64,000 nt of DNA. It comes from an uncultured Nitrososphaeraceae archaeon (GTDB lineage Archaea > Thermoproteota > Nitrososphaeria > Nitrososphaerales > Nitrososphaeraceae). The stretch's first letter is position 1; each line of letters opens with the position of its first letter. The notes below the pieces were generated by a model, which saw only the letters and a program-made list of their open reading frames with translations, was not told the DNA's origin and ran no database searches. The position numbers were made by a program, and so were the translations under genes. Positions 2,845-60,968 of this stretch are shown piece after piece. Location: contig CAVSMN010000021.1 of the NCBI GenBank assembly GCA_963729045.1, forward strand, positions 32,001-96,000, written 5' to 3'.

Positions 2845-4308
2845 ATGGTTAACAAAATAAGGTCCTCTATTAATAGCCGTGGCTTTGTATACACTTTTTC
2901 CATCTCTATGTTTGTTTATGATGATTATGTTTGCATTTGAATCATTCAAATTATAATGCTTTAGCCCAAAATCAATCTTCACCTTTGGCTGGAATGAACT
3001 TTTCAAAGCCTGTAGATGTATATAGTAAAGATGGAGTTTTGAAAACTACACTAGTTGCAGATTACAAGATAGGTCAAGTTGATAACCAGACAATTACTGG
3101 AATGGTCTATAATGGTTCGCTCCGGGGCCCGCTTTCCATGTCTATCCTGGAGATAGAGTTGAAATTGATTTAGTAAACAATCTCAATGAATCTACCAATC
3201 TCCATTTCCATGGAGTTCATGTATCTCCTGGAAATAATTCGGACAATGTATTTCTTGATGTTGCGCCAGGTAAGACACAGCATTATGTTCTCGATATTCC
3301 AAAAGATCACGAACCAGGTACGAATTGGTATCATTCACATTTGCATAAACTTTCTTATGGACAAGTTTCGGCAGGTCTGTCTGGGCTTGTTTATTGTTGA
3401 AGGTTTAGAAAAGTTATTGCCAGAGCCATTACAGAATATCACACAACATACCATTGCCATGAGAGATTTTCCATTTGACAATCTATTCGTTACTACAGAT
3501 GATTTGAGTAATACGATGACAGGCCATGAAAGCCTAACTGTTAACGGTGAAGTCAACCCGACTATCAACATTACATCAGGAGAGACCCAGCTTATGGCGT
3601 CTTGCAAACATCGGTCCTGAGAATGAACTACATATTCCACTGCCTGGCAATACATTCAATGTTATAGCAGAAGATGGAAGCCCAGTTTGGAAGGTGTGGA
3701 ATAATGATACTCTTTTCTTACCTTCTGGAAAACGGTTTGATGTATTGGTGACTGCCAACGGGAGCGGGTCTATTCCATTAGGATCCTGTTAATACCATTT
3801 ACTGCACCATATGATTCACACATTGCGACTGTAAATATACAAGGTAACCAAACCAGATGAAAAACCTGCAGATATCCTTCCAACAAGCTTAATTCCAAAG
3901 AGAGACCTCAAGTAATGCGAACATAACTAATCATAGAGTCCTTAATTTCTCATCAAACGATAGAGATTGGATATACATGATAAATAACACGACCTTTGAT
4001 CCTAACAGAGTAGATATAACAGCGAAGCTTGGAACTGTAGAGGAGTGGAAGTTAGTAAACCTTGATAAAATCTCATCTGGCAATATTCATCCATTTCATA
4101 TCCATGTAAATGATTTTCAGGTAATGTCAGTTAACGGAAAACCATATGACGCTCACGGATACCAAGATACAGTTATTATTCCGACTGAGGAGGTGAAGTG
4201 GTTATTAGGATACCGTTTGATGATTTTGTAGGAAAAACTGTTTATCACTGCCACTTGATGTTCCATGGGGACTTTGGCATGATGGGTATCCTTGAGATCG
4301 TTAAATAG
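2845..4308 (+). CDS. Secreted three-domain multicopper oxidase (laccase/CueO-like), multiple frameshifts
   Basis: All four Cu motifs are readable across frames: TNLHFHG (~3194), WYHSHLH (~3326), HPFHIH (~4088), YHCHLMFHGDFGMM (~4243). Signal peptide from ATG 2845. Confidence 0.9.
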
Positions 4309-4894: not shown

Positions 4895-5167
4895 GCCCAC
4901 CCTTTTTTCTATAGACAAGACAATAGCCTGCAAGATTATCATTTCTTTTCATCTATTATTTTTGTCGCGAACCTCGACACTCAAAGAGACTGACCACTGA
5001 ACCTGAATCCCAACAATCAAGATGTTATAATAGTTCCATGTCATTTTTGCCGCCTAGCCCACTCGATTCGCAATTGTATACTGCGTTCAATATCTTGCCC
5101 AATAAAAATCCGAAGTGGGATATATTTAATACACAAACTCTTAAAACTTTTCAAAAATTTATTATAG

Positions 5168-5226
5168 ACTCGTGTGAAATTTAATACTCGTCCAATCGAA
5201 CCATTATACCATACAGAACTTAATCA
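5168..5226 (+). repeat. Dispersed CCACCGAAC-core motif copy (modules A+B)
   Basis: ACTCGTGTGAAATT..CCAATCGAACCATTATACCATACAGAACTTAATC; matches 28579-28640. Confidence 0.7.
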
Positions 5227-5890: not shown

Positions 5891-6092
5891 TATCTAGCCC
5901 ACAACTACTTCAGTCCTAATAAGAAATGGTGTTAAACTAGAAAATACCTGCATAATTCTTAAGGATTGGATTTGAGATGTATTAGGTATGGTCATCGTTC
6001 AAAAACATTTACCTTTACCTTCATTCTAATACGACCTCAACGAATCCTCAGTATGTACTTTATCTATTTTTCCTTAATAGTTGAAATGCAAG

Positions 6093-6119
6093 CAAATTTG
6101 GGGTTGTTCCCACCGAAAC
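6093..6119 (+). repeat. Dispersed motif copy (module D)
   Basis: CAAATTTGGGGTTGTTCCCACCGAAAC. Confidence 0.5.
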
Positions 6120-6684: not shown

Positions 6685-6728
6685 AAACCGATGTTATATC
6701 CTAATGATTTTAACCGAACCCGCCTATT
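6685..6728 (+). repeat. Dispersed motif copy (module A)
   Basis: AAACCGATGTTATATCCTAATGATTTTAACCGAACCCGC. Confidence 0.75.
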
Positions 6729-6783
6729 ATACGGGTTATTCTTTAATATATTCGTCATAAAAATATGGATCTTTATGATTTTC

Positions 6784-7019
6784 AGCTCTATTCACTTCAG
6801 CATTTCTAACTCCTTGCTATGATGGTGGATAAATAGTTTCAGCAAATTCTTTGAATGATTAAGTTTGCAGTTTTTCAACCCATAAGGATAGTAGTCATCA
6901 AAACTCTCGGTTTTGTCCTTGATATACTGCATCGTCCTTTCGAGAATGCTTTTCTCGTAAGAGGCATGATTGTGATTGGATATTTGATATTTATATGTTT
7001 TAGTTGTCATCATTTCCAT
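6784..7019 (-). mobile_element. IS6-family (DDE) transposase 3' remnant with degenerate terminal IR
   Basis: EKSILERTMQYIKDKTESFDDYY..KNCKLNH resembles the C-terminus of archaeal IS6-family transposases as I recall them. AGCTCTATTCACTT at 6784-6797 overlaps the stop codon like an IS6 IR. Confidence 0.65.
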
Positions 7020-7829
7020 GATAATGAAAACAAATGAATAGTGCTATGAAAATGAATGCATCTATAACTAATAGGGAAGAATAGTAACAGTATAATATAC
7101 CTAACTACAATTTTCAATGGATATATGATTTGATAATCCATACATCATAAATTTACTTAGTTCATAGTCTCTAGTCTCAAAGGTAATGGTTACCATGAAG
7201 CTTATCATCGATTAAGATTATTATATATCATCTAATTTGACAAAGAAATAATCAGAACAAGAACATATCAAAATTATCAGGATTTGATGATACAATATCT
7301 ATTTTTTCTAATCAAAGTCGTTCACTTCCTTTAAATCCGTACATAGAGGTTATTTAACCTTAAATATTCTGATAGACTCTCTAAAGTTCAAAGGATCTAG
7401 TAATTAAACTGAATAGAACGGATTTTGAATCTGTATTATCCGATGTGACATCCAAAGCGTTTACCCGTAAAATATACTTAGACCACTTTATCATATTTCG
7501 TCAACGGTATTTGCTTTTTGTGTTAACGCTGATGGTTTTAACAATAGACCTCACAGATCTTGTCTTAAACCTCAAAGAACCTAGCTAACTGAAAAGTTAT
7601 ATGAATTGATTCTCCAATGAGAAAGTTACATTCTTAGTTTCTTTATGCTCCCTCTTTTATGGGTGTCTTATCACAAGGTATTCAATTATAAAAAATCGAC
7701 ATTATCACAAGAAATTAATTCATACAAGAAGGATGAATCGGTTTGCACTTACAATATTGTTTGTTTATCCACAAAAGTTTGCTAGACCTTTATCTTTATG
7801 AACAAAGAAAAATAAAGTATTTTTAACAT

Positions 7830-8643
7830 CTAGTTGAGCAGATAGGTTATCTGCACACTGACAGAAACCTCTTGTTGTCCTGGAATTATAGGAGTTGAGG
7901 AAGCTCCAGAAGCAAATGATCTTTGCATAAATTGATCGCTAAAAGGCATGGGGTTGAATCCATCTGTATTAACTGATATTGATTTGATACCTACGATTGT
8001 AGACCCTATTGCCGATGAGGCTATATCTGCATTTTGTTTGGCGTTGCTAATAGCTTGTTGTATTAGTGTATTTTTGACCTTGTCTAACGATTTGTCAGAA
8101 ACTTTAAAATCCACCCCATTAATGGTATTGGCTCCTGCAGTTACAGCAGAATCAATCCATGATGAAATATTATCAAAGTTCGGACTTTGAACTGTCACGA
8201 TGTTAGACACTGTGAACCCAGTTTTTACCATATTTCCTGTTTCTGTAAAATTGAAATTAGGTTGAATACTATATTGAGAAGTACTGATCTCATTTTCTTT
8301 GACGCCATTATCTCTTAAACTAGCGATTATTTCGTTTGCTATTTTCGAGTTTGATGTTACTGCATCAGTGACAGATTCATTTGTAGATTGTACATCCAAT
8401 CGAGATAGTTACCAAATCGGTATTTACTTTGTCCGTTGCAGAACCTGACACAAATAAAGTATTATTGAGAGATGCTGTTTGAGTTTTATTGACTTGGTTA
8501 GAATCCGTGACTTGGGCAAATACCTCAATAGGCTCCATGTACATAACAATAAGAGATACAAATCCCAATCCCAATCCCAAAAATAATAAGATTGTAAGAT
8601 TACTCATATTTCGTTTCAAATTTTTTTCATAATAATTTGACAT
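7830..8643 (-). CDS. SIMPL (DUF541) domain secreted protein, one frameshift near 8399
   Basis: Signal peptide, then VSGSATDKVNTDLVTISI.V..., AVTAGANTINGVDF, AISNAKQNA, PGQQEVSVSVQITY. Confidence 0.85.
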
Positions 8644-13238: not shown

Positions 13239-14100
13239 ATGAAGTCACCAAAATTGGCAATGAGGTTCGAGTTTCCCAAAGGCGTAGCCGTGGATGCTTC
13301 AGGTTATGTGTACGTAGCTGACGATGCGAATCATCGTATTCAGAAATCTGATAGCAATGGAAATTTTAGAAAAGAATGGGGAGAAGAAGGCTCTGACAAA
13401 GGAGAGTTCAAGTTTCCCAAAGGCGTAGCCGTGGATACATTCAGGCTATTTGTACGTAGCTGATGATGGCAACTGCCGTGTCCAAAAGTTTGACAGCAAT
13501 GGCAACTTCATTGGTGAATGGGGACGCAAAGGCTCTGACAAAGGAGAGTTCAAGTTTCCCAAAGGCGTAGCCGTGGATACATCTGGCTATGTGTATGTAA
13601 CTGACGACGAAAATCATCGTGTTCAAAAGTTTGACAGCAATGGCAACTTCATTACAACGTGGGGTTCAGAGGGTTCGAGAGATGGTCAACTTAAGCATCC
13701 TTATGGGATTCGAGTTGACTCCAATGGCTATGTGTACGTAGCTGACGATGCGAATCATCGTGTTCAAAAGTTTGACAGCAATGGCAACTTCATTGGTGAA
13801 TGGGGACGCAAAGGCTCTGACAAAGGAGAGTTCAAGTTTCCCAAAGGCGTAGCCGTGGATACTTCAGGCTATTTGTACGTAGCTGATGATGGCAACTGCC
13901 GTGTTCAAAAGTTTGACAGCAATGGCAACTTCATTGGTGAATGGGGACGCAAAGGCTCTGACAAAGGAGAGTTCAAGTTTCCCAAAGGCGTAGCCGTGGA
14001 TACATCTGGCTATGTGTATGTAACTGACGACGAAAATCATCGTGTTCAAAAGTTTGACAGCAATGGCAACTTCATTGGTGAATGGGGAAGACGCGATTGA
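13239..14100 (+). CDS. NHL-repeat six-bladed beta-propeller protein (1-nt insertion ~13440)
   Basis: Six copies of F.FPKGVAVD.SGY.YV.DD.N.RVQKFDSNGNFI.EWG. Confidence 0.9.
13266..14088 (+). repeat. 141-nt tandem repeat x6 with 423-nt higher-order period
   Basis: For example TTGTACGTAGCTGATGATGGCAACTGCCGTG occurs at both 13450 and 13873. Confidence 0.9.
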
Positions 14101-14459: not shown

Positions 14460-14491
14460 GAGTCAAATTTGTTTCACATATCCGAACCCGC
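14460..14491 (+). repeat. Dispersed motif copy (module D)
   Basis: GAGTCAAATTTGTTTCACATATCCGAACCCGC. Confidence 0.7.
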
Positions 14492-14552
14492 ATCAATTTT
14501 GGTTTCTCACTTCTTGCATGAACCAGATCTTACCACATATCAAAATTTAGCA

Positions 14553-16808: not shown

Positions 16809-16828
16809 CGAAGTTATCATAACATAAT

Positions 16829-18209
16829 ATGCAAGTTGCTGTAAGATTTAATGGAGTACTTCCAAATGTCTCTGAGTTAGGAGAAGAAGAAATCTCTGAA
16901 AGAACCTTCAAAGTAATGAAGCAGAATATCGCATCAAACACGTCTTGTTCTATTTTTTCAAAAAATGAACATAATGAAAATACATCTCATGTACTTGTGG
17001 ATGTTGGCCGTGGAGTAGTCCAAAGCATTGAGCGAGGATTCTCTAGTCTTGAATTCAAATCATCATCTTTACCAGACCCCCATCTTCCTAACGCAATTTT
17101 GATAACTCATTCACATGATGATCATATTGCAGATCTTCCAGCCTTAATAGAAAAAATTACTAATAGTTCCAAGAATTTACAGATTTTCTGTACCTGAAGA
17201 ATGCTATACACAGATTGTTCAAAAGTTTCCCCAACTTTCATCTATTATTTCATCCAATCCCTCTTCTGTAATAAACAATAATGCTGTTTCAGTTAATGTG
17301 ATACGTCCAAACAATATCTTTAACATTGATAATCTTTCGATAACTCCTATTTTGGCAAACCATGGTAGCGATACTCCTACTGGTTCAGTCATTTATGTAG
17401 TAGATACAGATAATATAAAAATGGTATTTGGATGGGATTTTCTTTCTCTAGTAGACGTAGACGAAAAGATACTCTGGAATCCTGATCTTGTTGTACTGGG
17501 GGCTCATAGCTATAATCCGCATCCAGAAACAGGAATGATCTCTGTTTCAGATGCTTACTCACTAATAAGACAATGGAATGCTAAAGATAGCTATATAGTG
17601 CATTATAGTGGGTTAGCAGATCTTGAGGATGCTAAAAATCAATGGTTTAGAGGACCTACAAAACCTATGACATCGGAGGAACTACAAAAGGTAATAGATT
17701 CTAGCGGTCCTATAACAGGTGCAGAAGATCATTATTCTTTTAAAATAATAGTAGCAAAGGAAGGAATGATATGGCATTCAAAAACACAATTTGAAGATTC
17801 CATGGAACAAAATGTTAGCAATGAAAAAATAGGAAATGAACTATTAATTGAAGGGCTTGAAAAATATGTATTGAAATTTGAGCATAATTCTATAGACAAT
17901 AATTTAAAAATTATGGTTGAAGATCGAATTAATAGACGCGATTTATCCTTTGTTAATCCACACAAAGATAGTAAATACGATAATATAGTTTATGCAGAGG
18001 CAGAGAAAGGAGGAATGATGACTCGTGGTCCAGAATTGAGAATGGAGGTAATGGATACAATTCCACAATCCTCGCAGTCACAAGAAGATTCTGCTGTTGT
18101 TAAAATACTTGCTTACAAAGGTAAAAAGGATGTTTATAGAAACGATATACGGATTAATAATTCAGACGCAGTAAGGTTGAAAAGATATCTTCAAGAAAAT
18201 TTAACATAA
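16829..18209 (+). CDS. MBL-fold metallo-hydrolase (PhnP/PqqB-like) with C-terminal extension, one frameshift ~17195
   Basis: LVDVG, ILITHSHDDH (HxHxDH), ANHG, FGWD, VHYSG. Removing 1 nt at ~17195 joins the two ORFs. Confidence 0.85.
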
Positions 18210-18555: not shown

Positions 18556-18586
18556 GGACAAATTTGTTTCATATACCGCCTAACCC
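18556..18586 (+). repeat. Dispersed motif copy (module D)
   Basis: GGACAAATTTGTTTCATATACCGCCTAACCC. Confidence 0.65.
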
Positions 18587-18849
18587 ATATCAGATCTGTA
18601 ATGGATATTTGTATAATCTGATGAGAATGGCAGCAGCCCTAGAATGTCTGATTTGAACACTTTAGATGAACTAGTTTATTAAGCAAGTATTTCGGCTAAA
18701 GATAAATCAAAAGCTACGTCACGACAATTGAAGCATATAACTATCACTTTTGCTTTCACTTTAAAGCAATTACAGTGATTTTTCAGACGAGGGCTTAACT
18801 AGGAAGGATTAATTGACCGATCTGATTGAGTTCATGAAAGATTTACAAA

Positions 18850-20350
18850 ATGAGATGCGAGAACCCTGTCATGAATCAGATACTCGATGCTTATAAACCG
18901 ATGTGGTCGCTAAAACATGCCATTTCTCTAATGGGTTGGGACTTTGAAACTTATATGCCTAGAGAAGGGGCAGAAGAGAGGGGAGTGGCCGATTCTCAGC
19001 TTCACATGATGCATAAAGATCTTCTGCTAAAGAAAGATTTTAGTGGTCTTGTTGAGTCAGCGAAGAAACTGAGGAGCCTTAGTGACTTTGAGAAGGGAAT
19101 TGTACCAGGTACTTGATAGGGAAATAACTAAGCAGGTCAAGATACCCAAAGAATTGACTGAAGCAGAATCTTTGGTAAGGATAAGGGGAAATATGGCATG
19201 GAGGGAAGCAAGGGCAAAATCTGCTTTTAAGATGTATGAACCGCACTTGAAGAAGATGATAGAAATAAAGAAGCAAATCGCTGCGAAGATAGGTTATGAA
19301 AAACATCCATATAATGCACTCTTAGATACATTCGAAGAGCAGCTTACCGTAAATGACTTGGATAAAATATTCGATGCATTAACCCCTCGTATTCAAACGC
19401 TTCTGAAAAAACTCGTAGATTCAAATAGCCCGTTCTGCAAAACGAACAAACTTGCAAAATCAAAATATGATATCAATAAAGTGAATGAACTCAATCACGA
19501 TATTTTGACTCTTCTGCAATACGACATGAAACGTTTCAGAATGGATATATCCACTCATCCTTTCACCGAGACTATGGGGCTAAACGATATCAGAATAACT
19601 ACTCGGTATGAAGGGATTGATTTCAAAAAGTCGATATTTAGTACCATTCATGAAGCTGGTCACGCATTGTACAATCTACAATGCGATCAATCATTGTCTT
19701 TTTCTCCCATTGAAGGAGGATCTTCACTTGGACTCCATGAATCTCAGTCAAGGTTTTGGGAGAACATTGTGTGCAGAAGTATGCCTTTTGTTCAATTGAT
19801 AAGTCCATTGATTAGAAAACAAATAGATTTCACAAACCAAACTACAGATGACGAATTATACCTTTATTTCAATAATGTCAAAGCTGACTATATACGAGTT
19901 GACGCCGATGAAGTTACTTACAATTTACATATAGCAATTAGGTATGAGATAGAGAAAAAAATATTTGGAGATGAGCTCAATGTATCTGAGATTCCTGAAT
20001 TCTGGAACGATAGAATGGAGCAGCTTCTTGGTGTGAGGCCAACTAAGGATTCAGAGGGAGTGCTTCAGGATACCCATTGGAGCAGCGGCCTTTTTGGGTA
20101 TTTCCCAACTTACACTCTGGGAAATTTGGTTTCAGCAATAATTGCTTCAAAGATGCGAAAAGATCTAGAAGACTCCGAGGAAGACATTAAGAGGGGTAAT
20201 TTTGATCCTATCAGAAAATGGTTAAGATTAAAAATACATCAGTATGGATCTGCTTTTGCTCCCAAAGTACTTCTTGATAAGAACCTAAATGAAGGATATA
20301 ACCCAGATTACTTTGTTAACTACCTTGAGACTAAATATCTTGGCTCCTGA
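18850..20350 (+). CDS. M32 carboxypeptidase (carboxypeptidase Taq family), one frameshift ~19105
   Basis: HPF, DIRITTRY, HEAGH zinc motif, HESQSRFWEN, IRVDADE, QDTHW, GYFPTYTLG. Confidence 0.95.
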
Positions 20351-21254: not shown

Positions 21255-21286
21255 GTCAAATTTGTTTCATCTACTATCTTACCCGC
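21255..21286 (+). repeat. Dispersed motif copy (module D, degenerate)
   Basis: GTCAAATTTGTTTCATCTACTATCTTACCCGC. Confidence 0.55.
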
Positions 21287-21531
21287 ATATTATGCGGGAA
21301 TATATGTCAGATATTCTTTATTATATTCGTCATGATGTAAGGAACTTTATTATTTTCATATTAACTGGAGATTAAATATATCTCTGGAAAATTAGAGATC
21401 ACAAAAAGAAATATTTAATTGTTGGACAATCTCTCATGTTTAAGCTTTATTCTAAAATCTTATCCAATCTAGTCAAATTACAAATCAGGCCAATAACTGT
21501 AAAATATTAGAACTCTGAATATTGAGTATCT

Positions 21532-21930: not shown

Positions 21931-21966
21931 CTATGATTTGAAATTATTTACAAACAAACTTGAAAT

Positions 21967-22018
21967 ACTCATGTGGATATCCTTATGATTTCCACCGATC
22001 CAGATCTCTATGTTAGTA
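21967..22018 (+). repeat. Dispersed motif copy (modules A+C)
   Basis: ACTCATGTGGATATCCTTATGATTTCCACCGATCCAGATCTCTATGTTAGTA. Confidence 0.9.
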
Positions 22019-22312
22019 TTGATCAGGATTTTATTGCAAATACTACAAATTCAAGGTGGGATAGTAGCGAACTAAGACATAAAATTTTTCTTGTCCTTTC
22101 TCATCATTCAGGTAAATATAACCACTTCTTGTTGAAGATGGGGGCCATATGGTCAAGTTCTCCGATTATCAACGAAAAATTTGGTGGTCGGTCTCATGGT
22201 CAAATGTTCAAATGTCGAATTAATGTCAATTACTAACGTCCAAGGCAAATTTTCAAAAGCCCCGATTCAAACATGTCTTCTACCCTATCCGATATCGTTA
22301 CTTCGCCTGTAT

Positions 22313-25609: not shown

Positions 25610-25773
25610 ATTGCTATAATAATAAATTATTACTCTCGTACGACGCAATGTGCTTAGATAGATTTACCTATTCAATTATATTTTGTTATAGATTGATGAC
25701 CTTCTTGTAATGGTTCCCTTGTATAACAAGGCCCAAGTCAAAATCTGTTTTTTAACCCATTGTTTGTTGCTCG

Positions 25774-25818
25774 ACTCATAGAGATATCCATATGATTTCC
25801 ACCGAACACGATACCTAT
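25774..25818 (+). repeat. Dispersed motif copy (modules A+C)
   Basis: ACTCATAGAGATATCCATATGATTTCCACCGAACACGATACCTAT. Confidence 0.9.
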
Positions 25819-25924
25819 CCATGGTAGCTATTGGACATTCTTTTGTTGATAATGCAAACGAGAGTATTGATACGCTGAATTATGTTATGAATCTACTTAT
25901 GACTATTCTTATAATTACTTAATA

Positions 25925-28578: not shown

Positions 28579-28713
28579 AAACCCATGTGGATCTCCTAAT
28601 GATTTCCACCGAACCCTTATACCATAGGAACTTAATCCCACTGAACCCGCTAGCTGTTTTACTATTATTGAGTGATAGAAATGGGTCAAATTTGTTTTAC
28701 ATACCACCGAGCC
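28579..28713 (+). repeat. Dispersed motif cluster (modules A+B, then D)
   Basis: Cores CCACCGAAC at 28606, CCACTGAAC at 28638 and CCACCGAGC at 28704. Confidence 0.9.
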
Positions 28714-29496: not shown

Positions 29497-29531
29497 AACT
29501 CATGTGGAAATTCTCATGATATATACCGAAC
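29497..29531 (+). repeat. Dispersed motif copy (module A)
   Basis: AACTCATGTGGAAATTCTCATGATATATACCGAAC. Confidence 0.8.
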
Positions 29532-29599
29532 GTGCCACATGTTTTGGTAACGATGTAATATAATAGTCACTGGCACGACGGATTTAGAGATTGACGATG

Positions 29600-29830
29600 G
29601 ACAGACCTGGGCAGACGAAGTGTGGTTGCCGAAAAGTAAGATTATCAAGATGCACCGTTCTAGACTATGGGCTGGAACGGTGCTCCCGGTCATTATGCTA
29701 ATAGGGTCTGGCGGACTACGATCGAGGTTGGTTGTGCGACTGCCCATAGTGATATACTGTGGTTCCCGTTTCTGGTGTTTCGCTACACCCCGACGGACAA
29801 CATCTTTGGGCAGCCAGTGTATTGGAAAAG
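29600..29830 (+). pseudogene. Second CAP/SCP domain C-terminal fragment
   Basis: GHYANRVWRTTIEVGCATA...LVFRYTPTDNIFGQPVY; visibly GC-richer than its flanks. Confidence 0.75.
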
Positions 29831-30084
29831 CCTTGTTCCAATCGCGGTAAGTATCTATCTATCACTATCTGCCAAGACCCTGATAAAGTTGCTCCAAGCA
29901 ACATATACCCTATTAAACTAAGGATAGGTAGAATCTTAATCATCTCCATCTTTACCCTATTCCCCTACTTCCTCCGCTGTCCCCTTCCCCAGTAGTCGTA
30001 TAAGGAGATACTATGGATTCACTGTTATAATATATGGTAACCATATTTTATCAGTTCAATCCATTCTTTATATTCTCATAGGCA

Positions 30085-30709: not shown

Positions 30710-30896
30710 TGTTAATATGATGATTACCTAGTAAAATACTTTAAAGGTCGTCTATTCATACGATGATTTCAAATACTTTAGAAATCATAGTCGATTATGT
30801 TATTAAAAATGGCTTTCGAGTCAAATATATGTGCGATGCAGCTGAAGTCTATTTTTCGATTATAAGTTTGTACATATCCCTTACCTTATTGAATTG

Positions 30897-30934
30897 ACTC
30901 ATCTTAATATCCTCATGATTTCCACATGACCTGC
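30897..30934 (+). repeat. Dispersed motif copy (module A)
   Basis: ACTCATCTTAATATCCTCATGATTTCCACATGACCTGC. Confidence 0.75.
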
Positions 30935-31898: not shown

Positions 31899-32060
31899 AT
31901 TATCTTAACTCTATCGATCACATTATTATTTTTTAATTGTATTGACTTTAAGGATCAATTTGACTTGGCAAAATTAATAAAACCTAAGCTGATCCGTCTT
32001 TGCATAAATTCTAATCGATGATCTAAAGACTACCGAATTACTCTATCTATTATTTAGAAG

Positions 32061-32088
32061 TGTGGATATCTCATTATTTTCACCGAAC
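32061..32088 (+). repeat. Dispersed motif copy (module A)
   Basis: TGTGGATATCTCATTATTTTCACCGAAC. Confidence 0.75.
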
Positions 32089-32680: not shown

Positions 32681-34511
32681 ATGAGTAGCATTATCTAATG
32701 TAAATACTCTGTCTTTAGTTATAGTTTCAATATCATTCATTTTACTTTTAGGTCCAACTTCAATGACCATGAATGTATTTGCTACAACCAATACAGCCAA
32801 TCAAGGCATAGGCCAATCACAATCTGCAATCCAACTTGGTGTTTGTGTATCGGGGAACGGTACACTTTTTTCGTGTAATAATTCGAATACACAAAACCAA
32901 GCAAACACTGGAAACAACGCATTAGTACAACAAGGTGGCAGTGGTAGTGGTGGCAATTCAGCCAATCAAGGCATAGGCCAATCACAAACCTCCAACCAAG
33001 GTAGTGGCGTAGCCTCTGGTGGCAACACTACTAATTCTGGAAACAACGCAAATACTCAAAACCAGACTAACACTGGAAACAACGCAGCAGCTCAAAGTGG
33101 CGGTAGTGGTAGTGGTGGCAATTCAGCCAACCAAGGCATAGGCCAATCACAAACCTCCAACCAAGGTAGTGGCGTAGTATCTGGTGGCAACACTGCTGGT
33201 TCCGGAAACAACGCAAACACACAAACTCAAAATAATACCGGTAGTAACGCTGTCGGACAACAAGGTGGCAGTGGTAGTGGTGGCAATTCAGCCAATCAAG
33301 GCATAGGCCAATCACAAACCTCCAACCAAGGTAGTGGCGTAGTATCTGGTGGCAACACAACTGATTCTGGAAACAACGCAAATACTCAAAGTCAAACAAA
33401 CACTGGAAACAACGCAGCAGCTCAACAAGGTGGTAGTGGTAGTGGTGGCAATTCAGCCAACCAAGGCATAGGCCAATCACAAACCTCCAACCAAGGTAGT
33501 GGCGTAGCCTCTGGTGGCAATACTGCTGGTTCCGGAAACAACGCAAATACTCAAACTCAAAATAATACCGGTAGTAACGCTGTCGGACAACAAGGTGGCA
33601 GTGGTAGTGGTGGCAATTCAGCCAATCAAGGCATAGGCCAATCACAATCCTCTAACCAAAACGCACAATGTGTTTCTGGTGGAAATACCGCAAATTCATG
33701 TAATAACACAAGTACTCAAAACCAAGCAAATAGTGGAAACAACGCAGCAGCTCAAAGTGGTGGCAGTGGTAGTGGTGGCAATTCAGCCAATCAAGGCATA
33801 GGCCAATCACAATCCTCTAACCAAAACGCACAATGTGTTGGTGGCGGAAACGTAGCTGATTCATGTAATAACACCAGTACTCAAAACCAAGCAAACAGCG
33901 GAAGCAATGCAGTAGGACAACAAGGTGGCAGTGGTAGTGGTGGCAATTCAGTGCCAATCAAGGCATAGGCCAATCACAATCCTCTAACCAAAACGCACAA
34001 TGTGTAGCAGGCGGCTCCTTAAGCAATTCATGCAGTAACAAAAATACACAAAGTCAAACAAACACTGGAAACAACGCAGCAGCTCAAAGTGGCGGTAGTG
34101 GTAGTGGTGGCAATTCAGCCAATCAAGGCATAGGCCAATCACAATCCTCTAACCAAAACGCACAATGTGTTTCTGGTAAAGATGCTATAGTATCTTGTGA
34201 CAATGAAAACTTCCAAAAACAAGTAAATAGTGGAAGCAACGCATTAGTACAACAAGGTGGCACGGGGTAACACTGCTAACCAAGGCATAGGACAATCACA
34301 AACATCCAACCAAGGTAGTGGCGCAGCATCTGGTGGCGACACAACTGATTCTGCAACCAGCGCAAACTCACAAAGTCAAGACAACAGTGGAAGCAATGCA
34401 GCAGCACAACAAGGAGGTAACGATGATATTGATAGCGGTGATAGCGGTGATAGCGGTGATAGCGGTGATAGCGGTGATAGCGGTGATGATGGAGGAAATT
34501 CATCTGACTGA
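32681..34511 (+). CDS. Secreted Gln/Asn/Gly/Ser-rich 55-aa repeat protein with acidic DSG tail (frameshifts ~32700-32750, ~33951, ~34262)
   Basis: Signal-like segment ending NVFA. The 165-nt repeats continue through the ORF breaks. Confidence 0.8.
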
Positions 34512-41441: not shown

Positions 41442-41469
41442 GTCAAATTTGTTTTACATGCCACCAAAC
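41442..41469 (+). repeat. Dispersed motif copy (module D)
   Basis: GTCAAATTTGTTTTACATGCCACCAAAC, nearly identical to 28685-28712. Confidence 0.8.
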
Positions 41470-43530: not shown

Positions 43531-43752
43531 ACGCCTTTGTAGATAATAATTATAATAGATTGAGATTAAGGCATTGTTAAATTGATATTCAATAAAGATC
43601 CATTATTTGTTAATGTGATATTTAGACCATATCGATGCTTGTAATTAAATGAAGTAGTATTGAGTTTGATGTTTTGAGTAATTTTTTACTGCACTTAAAT
43701 ATTTTAGATGATGTTTATTTTATGATTGCAAAATTGACTTGATACCTTTATC

Positions 43753-43834
43753 AGTGGCGGATATTCCTGTGATTGACCCAATCCCTTATTCCGCAAGGAA
43801 CTTAATCCCACCGAACTAGATACCCATGTTAGTA
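43753..43834 (+). repeat. Dispersed motif copy (modules A+B+C)
   Basis: ..CCCTTATTCCGCAAGGAACTTAATCCCACCGAACTAGATACCCATGTTAGTA. Confidence 0.85.
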
Positions 43835-43987
43835 ATGATAGTTATTAAATTAATAATAAAAAGTCATAAATCAATGACATATAAAAAAAGTCAAAAATTT
43901 ATGATAATCTCAATAATTAATCAGTTATCTATTCAGTCTTCTTTTGATATAGGGAAGTTGAATACACTAAATATTATTTTATCTGCT

Positions 43988-45747: not shown

Positions 45748-47075
45748 TTACCAGCCTAGAATTTCAGCAGTCTTTTTGGCGGCATCATCCAGAGCCTGTT
45801 TAGGTGCTTTTATGTTGTAAAAAACTTCATCGATAGCCTGTTTTATGTTCTCAGCAATTTGAGGATATTCTGGGATGTTTGGTCTACTATGACCCTCCGG
45901 AATCATAGATATCAGTTCAGAGTAATAAGGTATAGTACTATTTAGTTGGGATGAATAGTTACCCTCGCCAATTGGTTTTTGAGTTGGAAGATACCCTTCT
46001 TGTTGTAACATGGGGGTTAAAATCTCAGGATCCACCATTAGTGTCAACAACTCCCATACCAAATCCTTGTTAGGAGATGTTTGTGGAATACTTAATATCC
46101 ACCCACCCATCATTGTGGTGGTATTAACGTTTGATGATGGGGTTGGGAACAGCGGAAGCATTCCAATCTTTTCATCCAGTGAGTTCCATTCACTTTTAGG
46201 AAAAGTACCTAACAACCATGATCCTTCTAGCATAACTGCAAACTTTTTATCCGCAAATTCCTGTCCCCAAAAGTGATTAGGTTGAGGTGAAATACCTGCG
46301 TCTACTTGTTGCTTTAAGAATTCCAATGCCTTTACACCCTCCGAGCTGTTGAATGCCGGATACCAATATGATCCCTTAACAGGATGATTGTCTCTTTGTT
46401 CAAGGATTTGACCGCCTAGCATCCATAAATATGGATACCACATATCAGGAGAATGAGCGGCTCCCACAAGATGTCACTCCCTGGATCCCACGGTCTTTTA
46501 ATAAATCATTTAACTTCTTGGCGGATTCGATATATCCATTCCATGTAGTCAAATTCTCTGGATTAATCCCTGCTTCTTTGAGAAGATCTTTCCAATACCA
46601 CATCGCTCGAACATCAGTCCAAGACCAAATACCATAGGTTTTATTTTCATATTTTCCTCCTTCCCAATTGGTTGGATACCATTCATTTGCTCTTCCCCAC
46701 TCATTTACTTTATCGGTAATGTCCGATAAGAAAACCACCCTCTGCAAATTCTCCGAGCCATATTTGATCAACAGATATCAAATCTAAGGGAGTTTGTCCT
46801 GCCATAGAGGTTAAGATCTGTGTTCTGGTTGCGTCATATGGCAATACGCGATAGTCAATTTGAATGTCTAATTCTGGATGGTTTTGTCTTAATTTGTCCA
46901 ATGCCTTTTCAAATAAAATATCCCATCTTTCTTTAGGTTCTGCTACAATCGCAGTAAGTGTAACTTGCTTTTGCTGCTGCTGCTGCCCATACACCTCCCC
47001 GTAATTATTTTGTATAAAAAAAGTTACAAAGACTAATAAAACTAGTATAGAAAATGAATGCACATATAATTTCAT
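45748..47075 (-). CDS. Sugar ABC transporter substrate-binding protein (2 frameshifts)
   Basis: Signal peptide, DQIWLGEFAEGGFL, DVRAMWYWKDLL, TMMGGWIL; three overlapping ORFs. Confidence 0.9.
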
Positions 47076-47160
47076 TAGCCTTATAAGTACACCAACTTTT
47101 TTAAGTATTACTCAATCTATAAAATTTCATCTAATTAATCTCAAAGTTTTGAAGTTGCAT

Positions 47161-48454: not shown

Positions 48455-48505
48455 AAACCCATGTAGATTTCGAGATCACCACAGAAGTCGATATCTATAT
48501 TAGTA
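48455..48505 (+). repeat. Dispersed motif copy (modules A+C)
   Basis: AAACCCATGTAGATTTCGAGATCACCACAGAAGTCGATATCTATATTAGTA. Confidence 0.75.
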
Positions 48506-48733
48506 ACGAATATATCATGAAACTATTCTAATTATTACAAAAAAAGGTCATTGCTAATGGCTATGATATCTTCGACCTTCGATGCTAATGGGTATGATAG
48601 TAGGATAAGTCCTATTGGTGAAGAGCCATACATGCTATAAAGGATACTCCAAATACCACACCCATATAAAAGGGTAGATGTCGCCCAGAAAATTACTAAA
48701 GCTCATCTATACCTTTTTGTTTTTATTTTCAGA

Positions 48734-49015
48734 TTATATTGTTTTTTCCTTATTATATTCGTCACCCAGGTCTTTGTCAGTATCTTTGACTTTATTGACA
48801 ACGGCTTTTGTTCCTGCCTTTACCTTATCAACTGCTTCAGTATCTTTGACTTTATTGACAACGGCTTTTGTTCCTGCCTTTACCTTATCAACTGCTTCAT
48901 CGAGGACACTCTCAGATTCATCTTGAGGCCTTTCATTTTTATTATAATCGTCTGTTATATCCACAAGGTTTTCACCGCGATTCTCTGTCTTTTTATTATT
49001 CTGATTCTCAGACAT
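48734..49015 (-). CDS. Small hydrophilic LEA/CsbD-like protein with 20-aa duplication
   Basis: EAVDKVKAGTKAVVNKVKDT x2. Confidence 0.7.
   Translation of the reverse strand: MSENQNNKKTENRGENLVDITDDYNKNERPQDESESVLDEAVDKVKAGTKAVVNKVKDTEAVDKVKAGTKAVVNKVKDTDKDLGDEYNKEKTI
48777..48899. repeat. Perfect 60-nt tandem duplication
   Basis: The sequence lines beginning at 48781 and 48841 are identical over 59 nt. Confidence 0.95.
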
Positions 49016-50086: not shown

Positions 50087-50955
50087 CTAATTAACATCTA
50101 GAAATGTTTGTACCACTTTAGTGAATTTTTCCGGATATTGGTACATCCATCCGTGTCCTGCATCCTTAATTTGTATAAGCGATGCCAAAGGGATTTTTTC
50201 AATTAGTGTTAATGCAGCTTTGGGTGTAGTAATTATATCCTCTGTACCCATCAAAACTAAAGTTGGTTGGATAATCACTGAGGGAGAATAGTATATTCCA
50301 TTCCATCCAATGATTGCTTGTGCTTGTTTTTGTGTAGTTTCAATAGATACAGTGTCTCTTGAGAAGTGGAAAATGATTAATGAAGTCGGGATTGTCGAGA
50401 AGCCAGGACGAAGGGAAAAAAAACGAAAGTATTTGTCTTGCTTGTTCCTCAGGAGTCCCAGACACTCCACCCAATGTTTGCATTAGTTCAGCACTTGAAG
50501 GAATTGCTTTGTCTCCACCAGGCCCAGAGCCATACAGAATAAGATTACTTACTTTATCCGGATAAAAGAGTGCTAATTCCTCTGCGATATATGCACCCAT
50601 TGACCATCCAATAACATGTGCTTTCTCTATATTGAGTGAATTTAACAAATCTGCAGCGTCCTTGGCAAGCTGGTTAATAGAATAATCTTTAGTTCCAGTT
50701 GAAGAGTTACCTGTACCCCTATTATTATAGATTATAACGCTACGATTAGACTGAGCAAGCTCGTTTAGTATTCTAGGTGGCCACATATCCATAGTTATCC
50801 GCAGTCCGGCAATGAATAGAAGTGGAGTATTTTCATCACTGCTGGCCAATATTTTTATTCTTGAGAATTTTATATTCTATTTCTATATCGTCTACTGTGG
50901 CCTTTTGTATAGGAAAACTGTCTACTATATCCCTAGCTTGAGATTCATTAGACAT
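50087..50955 (-). CDS. Alpha/beta hydrolase (frameshifted)
   Basis: NRGTGNS, GWSMG nucleophile, PTLVLMGTED, AGHG. Confidence 0.88.
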
Positions 50956-51800: not shown

Positions 51801-52149
51801 ACGATCTAAATGTAAAAATAATTATATTGAAATTGCTAACTAATTGCAATACTCTAATACTCTAGCAACACTAGAAAATTGCTTATGTATTTCCAGCAGG
51901 TAAGGTAACTTGGAATCCACTATGAAATCTACAAGTTTTTCTTTATCAACAAAAAGGTAGTCTTATCTTTGGTAAATGTCCGTAAGTAAATCTTTTGCAT
52001 AATTAGCACCATTAAGAAAACTTGCAAAAGAATGAGACAACATAGTCGTAATTCGCAAAACAAAAATTGTATTTATCATATTTTGCTCCATAGGATGCAA
52101 AATCCATAAAGCTTTAAATGAATAACAATTAAGTCTTTAAATATTTGAT

Positions 52150-53077
52150 ATGGATATCAAGCCACAGAATGTATTAGATTATCATGGTAACAACGCCATA
52201 TTTATGGTTTGGAATTTTAAGAAAGATATAGACTTCAAAGATGGTTTTAAGAGGATTAGCAAATTGGTTATCAATCTTAATAATTCAGCTGATGACCGTT
52301 TTCCTGATTCCGGGGCAAGTTGCGTAATGGGGATTGGACATAATGCATGGCTTCGGCTTAATCTCCATGTTCCGCTCCCTAAAGAATTAGAGAACCTTTA
52401 TGCCTATTGTTGGTGAAAAACACACAGCAGTTTCTTCCAAAGGAGATTTGCATTTTCATATCAGAGGTAATGGTAGCAGTATGTGTTATGATATGGCACA
52501 TGCATTATCTGACGTGTTGGAACCGGTGGCTATAAGCACGGAAGAAATCCATGGTTTCAGATATCAGGACGGTCGTTCCATTTTAGGTTTTGTTGATGGG
52601 ACTGAAAATCCTCATGAACAGGAACGGGCAATATTTGGGTTGGTTGGAGATGATGATCCTGTTTATAAAGGTGGAAGTTATCTTTTTGTTCAAAAATTTG
52701 TTCATGATTTAAATGCATTTGAAAGATTATCAACTGAAGAACAGGAAAAGGTAATTGGCAGATATAAAATGAATGATATCGAAATGCCGGATAATATAAA
52801 ACCCTCAAATTCTCATATTGCCTTGGCCAATGTTGGTGACGAATTCAAGATTATTCGTGATAACATGCCTTTTGGAAACATATCCACCAATGAAATGGGC
52901 ACTTATTTTATCGCATATGCCAGCACATTCAGTACCGTAAAGAAAATGCTTAATAATATGTTTATTGGTTCTCCTAAAGGAAATTATGATAGGTTATTGG
53001 ATTTCAGCATACCCAAAACAGGAACTCTATTTTTTGTTCCAACATTAGATATGTTAGATGACTTTTCATCAAGTTAA
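52150..53077 (+). CDS. DyP-type (dye-decolorising) heme peroxidase, one frameshift ~52398
   Basis: GDLHFHIR, GFVDGTENP (GxxDG), GGSYLFVQK, EQEKVIGR, SHI proximal His, IIRDNMPFG. Confidence 0.95.
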
Positions 53078-54120: not shown

Positions 54121-54158
54121 AAACTCATGGAAATCCACATGATTCCACACCCACCGAA
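54121..54158 (+). repeat. Dispersed motif copy (module A)
   Basis: AAACTCATGGAAATCCACATGATTCCACACCCACCGAA. Confidence 0.7.
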
Positions 54159-54436
54159 TTTGTACATACTCTATTATGTCACTATTTCATTTTATAGGCG
54201 ACCTGTTAATCATTATTATGATTACACATCATCATGTTTTTGATATAGGCATTCCAATAGTTCTGACTGACAATTTCAGATGATTATCTATCTAAAATAC
54301 TGGCTACTGGCTACTGGCTCCAGATATCGAACCTGTTCGTTCATCATGGTTATACTTTCTATTCTTATAATCATGTTAAATTGAGATAAATGGATGCTGC
54401 TCGAAAATGTGAAAAAATTGTATCTTGAAAATTCAA

Positions 54437-56903: not shown

Positions 56904-57369
56904 ATGAATAAATTTAATTTATTCCTTATTATGAGCATAGGCGCAGTATTTGTCACAGCATTGATTTTTGGATCAACCATGACAACTGCATTTGCACAAG
57001 GAAATGACACAGGTGAAGTTCAGGTAGGATCGCCACTGGTATTTACAGCAGAAAATGCAACAATGGCTGCCAATAATGCGAGCAATGCTACTACAGCAGC
57101 AGCAGCAGGTGATTCGGTTGTAAGCCAAACACCCCAAGTTGATGCTCCTCAAGGCCAAGCAACCTCTGATGGTGGAGAAAACCTCTGATGGTGGAGAAAC
57201 CTCTGATGGTGGAGAAACCTCTGATGGTGGAGAAACCTCTGATGGTGGAGAAACCTCTGATGGTGGAGACGAAGGCTCTGATGGTGGAGACGAAGGCTCT
57301 GATGGTGGAGACGAAGGCTCTGATGGTGGAGACGAAGGCTCTGATGGTGGAGACGAAAACAATAACTAA
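56904..57369 (+). CDS. Secreted protein with acidic SDGGET/SDGGDEG repeat tail (extra A at ~57180)
   Basis: Signal peptide ending AFAQ. Removing one A from GAAAA joins it to the repeat tail. T-tract downstream. Confidence 0.8.
57162..57357 (+). repeat. 18-nt x6 followed by 21-nt x4 tandem repeats
   Basis: ACCTCTGATGGTGGAGA(A/C) x6, then GAAGGCTCTGATGGTGGAGAC x4. Confidence 0.95.
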
Positions 57370-57907
57370 AATAAATTAACCAATTTTTTTTCTCCTTTTT
57401 TTCTTTTATATTTTATCTGACTTTTGTTAACCTCTAATTGAGTAGAATACAATAGAATAATTAAGACTCGGCAAAGTCCCAAAATCTAGTAAATTTAGAT
57501 CCATAGTAATCGTGCTCTTTTAGTAGGGCAAGATTGAACGGGAACTTTAGGACTCGCTATACTTTTACTATCTCATTAGGGCTTGAAATCATATCTCTAC
57601 TAATTTTAGAATTAACGATACCTGTTTGGTCTGATAGAAATTAGACATCAAGTCTTTGTGCCTACTTACAATTACACAAATGTTATGTGAAATATTTTGC
57701 TTACTTGAATTATTGGTTTGTCGTAGATGAATTTGTCGATGCAAAAGAGAATAAATGTTTTTTAATTCATCTAAATTCTAGCAAAAATTAAGAAGTGATT
57801 AAACCTCTACTTCTCGCGTACTGATGATTATATTGCTTAGAGGACCTCCTTCAGAAATCTTGGAAGAGTGAAGGGCGAGTACTTACCGTGATAGGAAGGA
57901 GACTCCT

Positions 57908-58436
57908 CTAATATGGTGGTTGGCTATTGAAGTTGCCAGGTGGATTATATTGACAAACCAATACATTCGTTCCACCATATTGAGCGAATTAACCACCGGG
58001 TCCACTAGTGAATGCGCAACCAACCTCAGTTGAACGCTGGTCAACCATCTGAGTGTAGTGACCATTGCCAGAGCCGCAGGGTGCCAGGTACATAGTGACT
58101 CTTTTCGTTGACCCAGGACTGCTGCAGGACGTCCACAGTAGCGTATGACGGACCTCCTCCACTTGCCAAGTTCTCACCATAACCTGTGCCGGTGGAATGG
58201 ACCATCTGGCCTGTTGAAAGCAAATTATCGGCCCAATTCTGTGCGCTGGCGGCGATGCTGTCGCTCCACGTCAGCGGTGCAACTCCAACTGCAGCGCGTT
58301 CTTGGTTGTGGGTATTCAAGATGGTATTTTCTAAATCCCCTTGTGCATACGATAATTGCAGAACTGATGATGGTACTACTAGAGTTGCCGTCATAATCAA
58401 GATCATAGTAATTTTTACTGATATTTTGTTATACAT
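57908..58436 (-). CDS. Secreted CAP/SCP (PR-1-like) domain protein, frameshifted
   Basis: ILNTHNQERAAVGVAPLTWS, GENLA, SWVNEK, GHYTQMV..STEVGC, LVCQYNPPGN. Confidence 0.9.
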
Positions 58437-59448
58437 GATTTGTATCAATATTAGAAACAATTTAGTTTATTAATGAATCGATTAGTTTAAATACTAGTGT
58501 CTTAATAGGGAATTTTCGATTGGTCATTCAGGATTGTTCATAATGTTTATAACTTTTTAGCCCTCTTATTCACTAATTTATATCTTAAGGAATCACCGAA
58601 TAATAACGAAGGTCTAATCTTAGAGGACATAGTCAACAAATTGATTAGAATGTTTGTTTTTGAATTTATGGACCGTTGGTAAAAAGATATGTCTTAGTAT
58701 TTCTATGCAAAAGAACAAGGAACATACTTCTCAATCGGAGCATTCACTTAACTTAAGTTTAATCATAAAGATACTAAAACCTAGATGTTAAGTAACTTCC
58801 ACTATCTATACCTATCAAGTATTTGTCTAAAATAAATTAACTGTTGAATTTTGATTGTGAAATGTTCGAGAGTTGTGCAATAATAATAATAATAGTAAAT
58901 TCAGTATCCCATCTAATCTAATCTCCTTTAATTGTTTTGTATCTGTTCAAATAACACCAATCGGACCAACATCAAGGATGCTCTAATTAGGATATGCTCA
59001 TATCAGACAAGAGATAGTTAAAACAACTACAAAATGGATCTGAACATCAGCCTTGTGATTTAATGAAGGGCTGTATGAAAGTGTTCATTGAGTGGTACCA
59101 TTAGAAAGTATTCCTGTTATGTTCAAGACTAATTTATCGGAATGAACTATGAGGGTATGACGGGTCAATTTAATAATGAAAATTATGATATATGTGGTTC
59201 TTCCTGTATGACGGTTATGTGTTTGGATGTATATCTGTGCCAGAAAATGCTAAGTATGCATTAAAGTTTCGTAGGCAATATCAGTGTGTATTGCACCATC
59301 TATCGTACAGTCAGCTCATTCGTTTCAAATATCAAATAATGTCCATGCGAAATGAGAAGAAAAAAAAGTTAAGAGGAGGAACTCATAATCACTGTCAAAA
59401 GTAAATACGCGATTACCTTATAAATGACAAAACTATAGATACGTTACA

Positions 59449-60291: not shown

Positions 60292-60344
60292 AAACTCATA
60301 CTGATATCCTTATTATTCCGCCAAGCTCGCAACTTATTTGAGTA
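60292..60344 (+). repeat. Dispersed motif copy (A+C, degenerate)
   Basis: AAACTCATACTGATATCCTTATTATTCCGCCAAGCTCGC. Confidence 0.6.
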
Positions 60345-60902: not shown

Positions 60903-60968
60903 AACTAGTGTGAATATCCTATGATTCTCACCAAATCCTCTATACAATACTCTATTTAATCTCACCAC
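60903..60968 (+). repeat. Dispersed motif copy (modules A+B)
   Basis: AACTAGTGTGAATATCCTATGATTCTCACCAAATCCTCTATAC..TTAATCTCACC. Confidence 0.7.

Follow-up and report, generated by a model that had tools for sequence, protein, structure and literature searches.

A 9-nt core, CCACCGAAC, is the joining point of independently inherited DNA segments, each with its own arm and all with one polarity. The arms belong to several unrelated families, each inherited with the DNA on its own side of the core, and within a region the junctions face one way, lie between genes and recur every 1-3 kb. These same-facing joints separate blocks of one or two genes in a variable region of ammonia-oxidising soil archaea. 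For the 135-bp feature at 28579-28713 of the window (the whole 64-kb stretch of DNA that was analysed), we see an even chance that it is a composite, three-core junction in a long gene-cassette array of a Nitrosocosmicus-type archaeon.

A composite junction with three cores

The initial annotation of this DNA had placed cores at 28606, 28638 and 28704, and direct reading of the sequence bore this out. The 135-bp feature is made up of the following parts:

28580-28605, + strand: left arm A1 of the first junction, a 26-nt imperfect palindrome touching the core (A profile match of 44 bits)
28606-28614, + strand: core 1, CCACCGAAC
28615-28637, + strand: B body, 23 nt here versus 24 nt in the consensus, with a short hairpin-like head and then the tail GGAACTTAATC
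28638-28646, + strand: core 2, CCACTGAAC, 32 nt past core 1
28647-28669, + strand: degenerate C-like right arm (a remnant), an arrangement also present in CAVWZU contigs 1 and 4
28670-28703, + strand: left arm D, with an 8-nt perfect palindrome
28704-28712, + strand: core 3, CCACCGAGC

The start of arm A in this feature (28580-28586) is the reverse complement of the bases just 5′ of the D arm (28682-28688). The same relationship was observed in related loci L060 (near 2039-2140) and L075 (near 13724-13810), with the variable base agreeing in three of three cases.

Matches to CCACYGARC numbered seven in the window, all on the + strand, compared with a shuffle expectation of 0.55; the maximum in shuffled sequence was three, and none of 100 shuffles reached seven. 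About 22 junctions were counted in the window, all of them on the + strand. Those outside the composite feature include:

5167-5225, + strand: A3 arm, degenerate core (5193-5201), B body
6088-6118, + strand: core CCACCGAAA (6110); homologous in its left flank to that of one CAVWZU contig 4 site
6693-6735, + strand: partial A1 arm, core TAACCGAAC (6711-6719), E-type right arm
14462-14505, + strand: D arm, truncated core, F-type right arm
18557-18584, + strand: D arm, degenerate core CCGCCTAAC
21255-21298, + strand: D arm, degenerate core, E-type right arm
21966-22021, + strand: A1 arm, core (21992), C arm; left flank in common with JBGTFK contig 182
24972-25004, + strand: core CCACCGATT, C-type right arm; left arm unclassified
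25773-25830, + strand: A1 arm, core (25799), C arm; homology to two places in CAWKJS contig 7 begins at the core
29497-29555, + strand: A1-like arm, core ATACCGAAC (29523), C-like arm; end point of four homology blocks
30896-30930, + strand: degenerate junction with A1-like arm, CCACATGAC
32056-32088, + strand: degenerate A1 arm, core TCACCGAAC
41442-41469, + strand: D arm, core CCACCAAAC
43749-43838, + strand: degenerate A arm and degenerate core, B body (43784-43807), core (43808-43816), C arm
48456-48511, + strand: A1-like arm, core CCACAGAAG (48479), C arm
54122-54159, + strand: A1-like arm, core CCACCGAAT
60294-60325, + strand: degenerate A1-like junction
60903-60960, + strand: degenerate A-B junction

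All of the combinations proposed in the initial annotation were present, namely A-B at 5168, 28579 and 60903, A-B-C at 43753 and A-C at 21967, 25774 and 48455, several of them in degenerate form. Copies of arm D were present at 14462, 18557, 21255, 28685 and 41442, and here too several of the window copies were degenerate.

Genomic context and the sample of related loci

The G+C content of the window was 34%, in agreement with the 33.9% that part of the text of PMC5398378 gives for a Nitrosocosmicus genome, and the window host looks like an ammonia-oxidising archaeon of the Nitrosocosmicus type. The window encodes ordinary accessory proteins, including a P450, NHL repeats, a DASS transporter, a sugar ABC operon, hydrolases, a DyP peroxidase and MscL, and no tRNA gene was found in it. 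Eight window genes are broken into two or three adjacent frames (3113-4228, 16823-18206, 18838-20347, 45751-47111, 50090-50876, 52141-53074, 57992-58466 and 61706-62909); they encode a multicopper oxidase, a metallo-beta-lactamase, an M32 peptidase, a solute-binding protein, an alpha/beta hydrolase, a DyP peroxidase, a CAP protein and an S9 peptidase. The splitting reflects either array decay or assembly indel errors. The density of ORFs in the window is low because many genes are split; an alternative genetic code was considered as the cause, and no code stood out.

Related loci were found by scanning a species-representative genome collection with a single 19-nt A-core pattern, which returned 98 stretches. 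About 54 of these were loci from 13 assemblies labelled Nitrosocosmicus, Nitrososphaeraceae or Nitrososphaerales, with one labelled Nitrosopumilus, and the remainder were single chance matches in bacteria without arrays. The loci were gathered by the A1-core pattern with 10 kb on either side, and the sample is therefore biased to A1-bearing loci; the contigs are mostly from metagenome bins, and the ORF calls are rough. Pattern matches were confined to the first 54 kb of one 446-kb contig, and an isolate contig held five exact cores inside 5.6 kb of a 20-kb locus, both of which indicate local arrays.

Several features of the cargo were observed along the way. Defence-like genes carried by the arrays (L016, L003 and L043) encode TIR, SLATT, SLOG and DUF4062-NB-ARC-TPR proteins. 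One multi-copy cassette, found at L033 786-1427, L031 10227-10847 and L006 421-1074 and 9173-9829, has a conserved upstream region of ∼230 nt and encodes a helical protein of ∼210 aa without a Pfam family; it occurs in several copies per assembly, with a different left neighbour each time. The label 'phasin-like' was considered for this protein and found to be unsupported (no Pfam signal at E ≤ 0.5). Directly after a junction, positions 29540-29900 of the window are richer in G+C, carry ORFs overlapping on both strands and resemble a structured RNA; this segment had no Rfam match and no homologue among the fetched related loci. Coding tandem repeats were seen at window positions 32789-34500, 13298-14076, 57158-57378 and 48777-48896. 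The repeats include a 165-nt unit in a Gly/Asn/Ser/Gln-rich protein with some cysteines, a 141-nt NHL unit, acidic repeats of 18-21 nt and a perfect 60-nt duplication.

A constant core between interchangeable arms

Every site follows the plan of left arm, CCACCGAAC and right arm, with at least seven left-arm and four right-arm families that combine freely. A search with the core only recovered A1, A2, A3, D, G, H and the tail of B as left arms abutting it, more than the three that had been distinguished from the window at first. Arm A1 (RACYCATGTGGATATCCTCATGATTT) is a 26-nt imperfect palindrome with its foot at a sharp conservation boundary and its other end at the core; across 93 A-type copies, conservation started abruptly at RACYCATG and ran for 38 nt through the end of the core. 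A3 is also a 26-nt imperfect palindrome, G is a palindrome of 16-18 nt, and D (27 copies among the related loci and the window) has an 8-nt perfect palindrome. The right arms were of four kinds. C is a short word, hairpin-like, that ends with GTAACG; E is a GC-clamped hairpin with a conserved gene leader after it; the other two are F and the head of B. The word CCGC, once taken for a right flank of its own, is merely the start of the C, E and F arms.

In a cross table of 180 sites, C followed all seven left-arm families, B followed six, and E followed A1, A2 and A3. The bases flanking the core differed among arm families, and the constant part was the core alone (9-10 nt). The commonest architecture kept its module order (about 50 A-C, about 19 A-B-(C) and one A-B-B-C). 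The tandem spacing of 32 bp that had been described for B holds between the cores at 28606 and 28638, but elsewhere the B unit measured 33 nt from core to core (13 of 14 single-unit cases in the related genomes and the window), and 32 nt was seen only in the window. B combines a head similar to the E right arm with a tail that amounts to a short left arm, and therefore fits a cassette without cargo. The earlier suggestion that B is an empty cassette is thus plausible, although slippage between cores may give rise to the same unit.

Behind the E-type right arm come two direct words of the ATATTCG type, an AT-rich box and the conserved start of a gene. This leader was observed at L040 (CAVWZU contig 4, near 7700-7860), L016 and L063 (near 18715), L026 and L023; in the window copies, at 6720-6790 and 21283-21340, the gene is absent or broken.

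Flanks reassort around the core

Pairs of sites were compared for their outer flanks across 180 sites from the 13 assemblies and the window. Both flanks were in common in only one pair, compared with 37 pairs that had only the left flank in common and 26 that had only the right. In the left-sharing pairs, which like all pairs in this linkage test are not independent, the left-arm class was the same in 30 of 37 (an expected fraction of 0.27 from the cross-table margins) and the right-arm class differed in 23 of 37. Right-sharing pairs, likewise not independent, gave the mirror image, with the same right-arm class in 22 of 26 (0.35 expected) and a different left-arm class in 14 of 26. In one example a D arm and an A1 arm precede right flanks that are 91% identical, and in another D and B precede right flanks that are 99.5% identical. 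After the core, identity in right-sharing pairs was 0.70, compared with 0.41 for unrelated pairs (p = 4e-7) and 0.40 for left-sharing pairs. Over the left part of A it was 0.83, 0.81 and 0.73 in left-sharing, right-sharing and unrelated pairs, respectively (p = 8e-4 for left-sharing versus unrelated). The claim of the initial annotation that flanks reassort around a fixed core is upheld by these comparisons, in which left and right arm classes travel with their own flank and a single pair keeps both flanks.

Breaks in synteny coincided with the sites. None of 91 A-type elements had both flanks colinear in another genome, as judged from the DNA within 10 kb of the elements, and synteny was kept across 0 of 54 testable intergenic gaps with a site versus 16 of 48 without one (Fisher p = 1e-6). 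Only 2 of 167 homology rows of at least 300 nt (each block counted in both directions) spanned an element, and 25% of block ends fell within 150 nt of an element, compared with 7.6% for random points. In the window itself, none of 30 homology blocks spanned a site and 10 started or stopped within about 25 nt of a core; both flanks of the junction at 21255-21298 (21274) matched CAVWZU contig 4, at places 21 kb apart. An S9-peptidase gene was found between sites, with differing neighbours, in four genomes. The crossover interval was no narrower than from arm A position 20 to the start of the right arm. One left flank of 99% identity stopped at the outer edge of arm A, and in two near-identical right flanks the first 10-30 nt past the core were far more diverged than the cassette.

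We also observed that several short-read contigs (L004, L026, L055 and others) terminate at a distance of about 140 nt from an element. In one bin, two contigs with the same left-flank sequence part ways within the element, suggesting structural variation between strains at these sites.

Enzyme genes and element ends

No gene for a tyrosine or serine recombinase or a Y1/HUH transposase was found among 85 window ORFs of at least 90 aa and 83 of 55-89 aa, and no recombinase or HUH gene was found among 257 ORFs of the related loci (about 340 kb). These loci reached no array end with certainty, so a recombinase gene may lie at a distance. Traces of transposases in the window and related-locus ORFs amounted to two stray DDE fragments. 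Recurrent array ORF families of unknown function, considered as hidden enzymes, gave no Pfam signal at E ≤ 0.5. The site-specific crossover put forward in the initial annotation is therefore supported as to flank reassortment and putative as to its enzymatic, site-specific nature, given the lack of a recombinase gene in these ORFs, the loose placement of the crossover and the few breaks at the outer edge of an arm.

A decayed MITE or IS end with terminal inverted repeats and target-site duplications had been named as the contrary reading, and these ends were looked for. The longest word common to the two flanks was 4.25 nt, compared with 4.33 ± 0.15 nt for re-paired flanks, and the score for terminal inverted repeats was 3.55, compared with 3.95 for shuffled sequence. 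With neither target duplications nor terminal inverted repeats, and with no empty sites in the DNA within 10 kb of the elements (0 of 91), a classical MITE or IS end was rejected. The idea that A and C are the inverted repeats of one hairpin element applied to some window copies only and was not general.

An alternative that we consider unlikely, but that deserves real weight, is that the sites are a passive, REP- or BOX-like modular repeat (A, variable B, C) that spread by an unknown route and became a hot spot for general or microhomology-mediated recombination, with the DNA between copies deleted, duplicated and re-joined. The fixed module order of the commonest architecture is what such a repeat would display, and arm A is very uniform over 38 nt, sufficient for short-homology exchange; that some breakpoints lie outside the core and that no dedicated enzyme gene was found in the window or the related loci is also in keeping with it. 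However, exchange occurred between families that have only the 9-nt core in common (14 of 26 right-sharing pairs), and exact cores in 405 kb numbered 115 on the dominant strand of their contig and none on the other, a co-orientation unexpected for random insertion. In addition, the terminal inverted repeats or target duplications of an inserting element were lacking, and insertion into otherwise colinear DNA was seen for 0 of 91 elements.

Polarity, position and spacing of the sites

When up to one mismatch was allowed in the core, 177 matches fell on the dominant strand and 9 on the other in the same 405 kb. Two contigs showed a real convergent switch of polarity, both adjoining an FkbM-type methyltransferase gene; the switch flanks a cassette with this gene in L076 (JBGTFK contig 182, 418-2601) and in L066 (JBBRRF contig 111, 1451-2871), and could represent an inverted segment, a place where two arrays meet or a landmark of replication. 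In 63 of 69 cases homologous segments faced the same way with respect to the sites, and by our reading 4 of the 6 exceptions fall in the two contigs with a local polarity switch. The sites are intergenic, with 6 of 254 site marks inside predicted ORFs (A-profile matches and core matches counted separately). Spacing among 161 junctions had a median of 1565 nt (interquartile range 1064-2630 nt), and one ORF per inter-site interval was the mode (57 of 120 intervals).

The polarity was also weighed as a sign of polar chromosome sites for a DNA-tracking or fork-related protein, with functions in replication arrest, segregation or domain boundaries and with site direction following the direction of replication. 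Strict local polarity regardless of transcription agrees with such a role, as does the convergent switch at the same cassette in two assemblies, which would be expected at a terminus. We nonetheless regard this as improbable. It leaves both the unrelated arms flanking the core and the consistent synteny breaks at the sites unexplained, and one site per 1.6 kb within local arrays is a density that, to our knowledge, known fork-trap or orienting sequences do not reach.

Genes did not follow the direction of the sites. Upstream neighbours were in the same direction as the site in 41 cases and opposite in 29, downstream neighbours in 37 and 34; gene arrangements around the site were convergent (17), divergent (17), tandem and co-oriented with the site (16) or tandem and opposed (9); and single-ORF cassettes were co-oriented with the site in 31 cases and opposed in 26. 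Rfam searches of the window gave no hit at gathering score, and relevant matches were lacking both around the locus (E ≤ 10) and in three canonical-copy loci (E ≤ 1); a C/D-box or other known RNA was discarded for want of a match. Gene starts in the arms were also discarded, since the CAT of arm A and the ATG of arm C open ORFs of only 8-58 aa; one 102-aa ORF that begins at an arm triplet overlaps a real gene on the other strand. A role in gene expression, whether as the operator of a dimeric regulator, as a terminator or insulator or as a gene for a small RNA, is thus improbable: the palindrome of arm A has the size bound by dimeric regulators and the E-type right arm precedes an AT-rich box and a conserved gene start, but neighbouring genes are oriented at random relative to the site and occur in all four arrangements, the arm triplets open no real ORFs, Rfam gave no match, and the synteny breaks are not predicted.

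Proposed mechanism

With the balance of evidence close to level, we favour the reading that the sites join the units of an integron-like cassette array and arise from site-specific recombination at the core. The 9-nt core would be the point of cleavage and strand exchange for a system that takes up, releases and rearranges cassettes of one to a few genes with fixed polarity. Each cassette would begin with a right arm and end with a left arm, so that neighbours form hybrid sites, like attL and attR in tandem integrations, and B would be a cassette free of cargo, in which the head of a right arm runs directly into a minimal left-arm tail. That exchange occurs between arm families with only 9 nt in common argues against plain homologous recombination.

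The enzyme might be a conservative recombinase or one of HUH type, acting on a single strand and recognising a short sequence next to a palindrome, and a duplex-acting recombinase with loose arm requirements is an equally open option. Some enzymes recognise a hairpin together with adjacent single-stranded sequence, and the varied, dyad-symmetric left arms beside an invariant short word resemble the sites of such hairpin-reading enzymes. Hairpin propensity was higher in the arms than in random 30-mers (left, p = 8e-11; right, p = 4e-4), with a mean folding energy of −1.75 kcal/mol for left arms compared with −0.74 kcal/mol for random 30-mers. Single-strand folding was weak (z of −1.7 to −2.6 for a canonical copy and +0.9 for the window locus), and no significant covariation was found either for the arm A palindrome and C hairpin or for a rival GTGGA/TCCAC stem.

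The gene blocks differ in their order from species to species through rearrangement at these joints, in a manner that recalls the integrons of bacteria. In its fullest form, which we advance more tentatively, the proposal is that Nitrosocosmicus and its relatives possess an undescribed gene-cassette system, an analogue of the integron, in which an enzyme, possibly one acting on single-stranded DNA, recombines at CCACCGAAC between palindromic and hairpin arms and builds co-oriented arrays of more than 55 kb with accessory and defence-like genes, hybrid junctions and empty (B) cassettes. The main-text portions of the literature on islands, repeats, mobile elements and coding density in Nitrosocosmicus, Nitrososphaera and Thaumarchaeota that were covered hold no description of these sites.

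Ammonia-oxidising archaea are key nitrifiers of soil, and how they acquire accessory genes is poorly known. If the proposal is correct, it would add a new gene-flow route to those of Archaea, through a cassette platform whose recombination site is of its own type, and would lead to a recombinase that might serve as a tool. It could also help to explain the many strain-specific genes of Nitrosocosmicus and its coding density, which at 74-77% is the lowest of these archaea according to part of the text of PMC6657660 and PMC5398378. The sites are simple to search for, and the idea is therefore directly testable in complete genomes and long-read metagenomes.

Comparison with known systems

Xer/dif sites have two conserved, inverted binding arms around a short spacer, whereas the bases adjacent to the core vary here by arm family. 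Elements derived from IS200/IS605, as well as REP/RAYT elements, lack terminal inverted repeats and target duplication, are strand-specific and place a palindrome beside a short conserved sequence. The present sites are like them in all of these respects, having palindromes beside a short conserved word, strand-specific orientation and no terminal repeats or duplication. They differ in that the left and right arms are dissimilar, in that the elements bound cargo genes and are not self-contained, and in that no Y1 transposase gene was found in the window and related-locus ORFs.

The pneumococcal BOX elements are short, non-coding and intergenic, with modules in the order A, a variable number of B, and C. 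The sites described here are likewise short, non-coding and intergenic and in their commonest architecture have the order A, variable B, C. In contrast to BOX, however, D, A2, A3, G and H can replace A, and E and F can replace C, by families that are unrelated; furthermore, all copies are co-oriented and synteny was kept across a copy in 0 of 54 gaps.

The closest parallels are tandem integration arrays and the cassette arrays of integrons. Tandem arrays of integrated elements that re-use one attachment site are mentioned for archaea in part of the text of PMC6563490, and Prochlorococcus islands are a related case of tandem integration, as far as part of the text of a preprint (10.1101/2020.12.28.424599) describes them. 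The likeness lies in direct repeats of a short core, hybrid junctions with arms from different neighbours, and islands of accessory genes. Unlike such arrays, the units here are only about 1.6 kb, carry no integrase and form dozens of junctions per array, and the core lies outside any tRNA gene, none having been found in the window.

The sedentary chromosomal integron arrays of attC sites and IntI, including the archaeal integrons of PMC9668308 as part of its text describes them, are also similar, being long arrays of short cassettes, most often of one gene, with accessory functions, separated by co-oriented, species-typical repeats and shuffled between genomes. Integron cassettes are mostly single co-oriented ORFs; here single ORFs are the commonest content of an interval (57 of 120), but these genes face either way (31 versus 26), and no integrase gene was found in the window and related-locus ORFs. 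The paired boxes that define attC were absent from either strand of a 47-copy consensus; instead, the site consists of a palindrome, the core and a second short hairpin, with the fixed 9-nt core standing between two unrelated arms where attC is one long imperfect hairpin.
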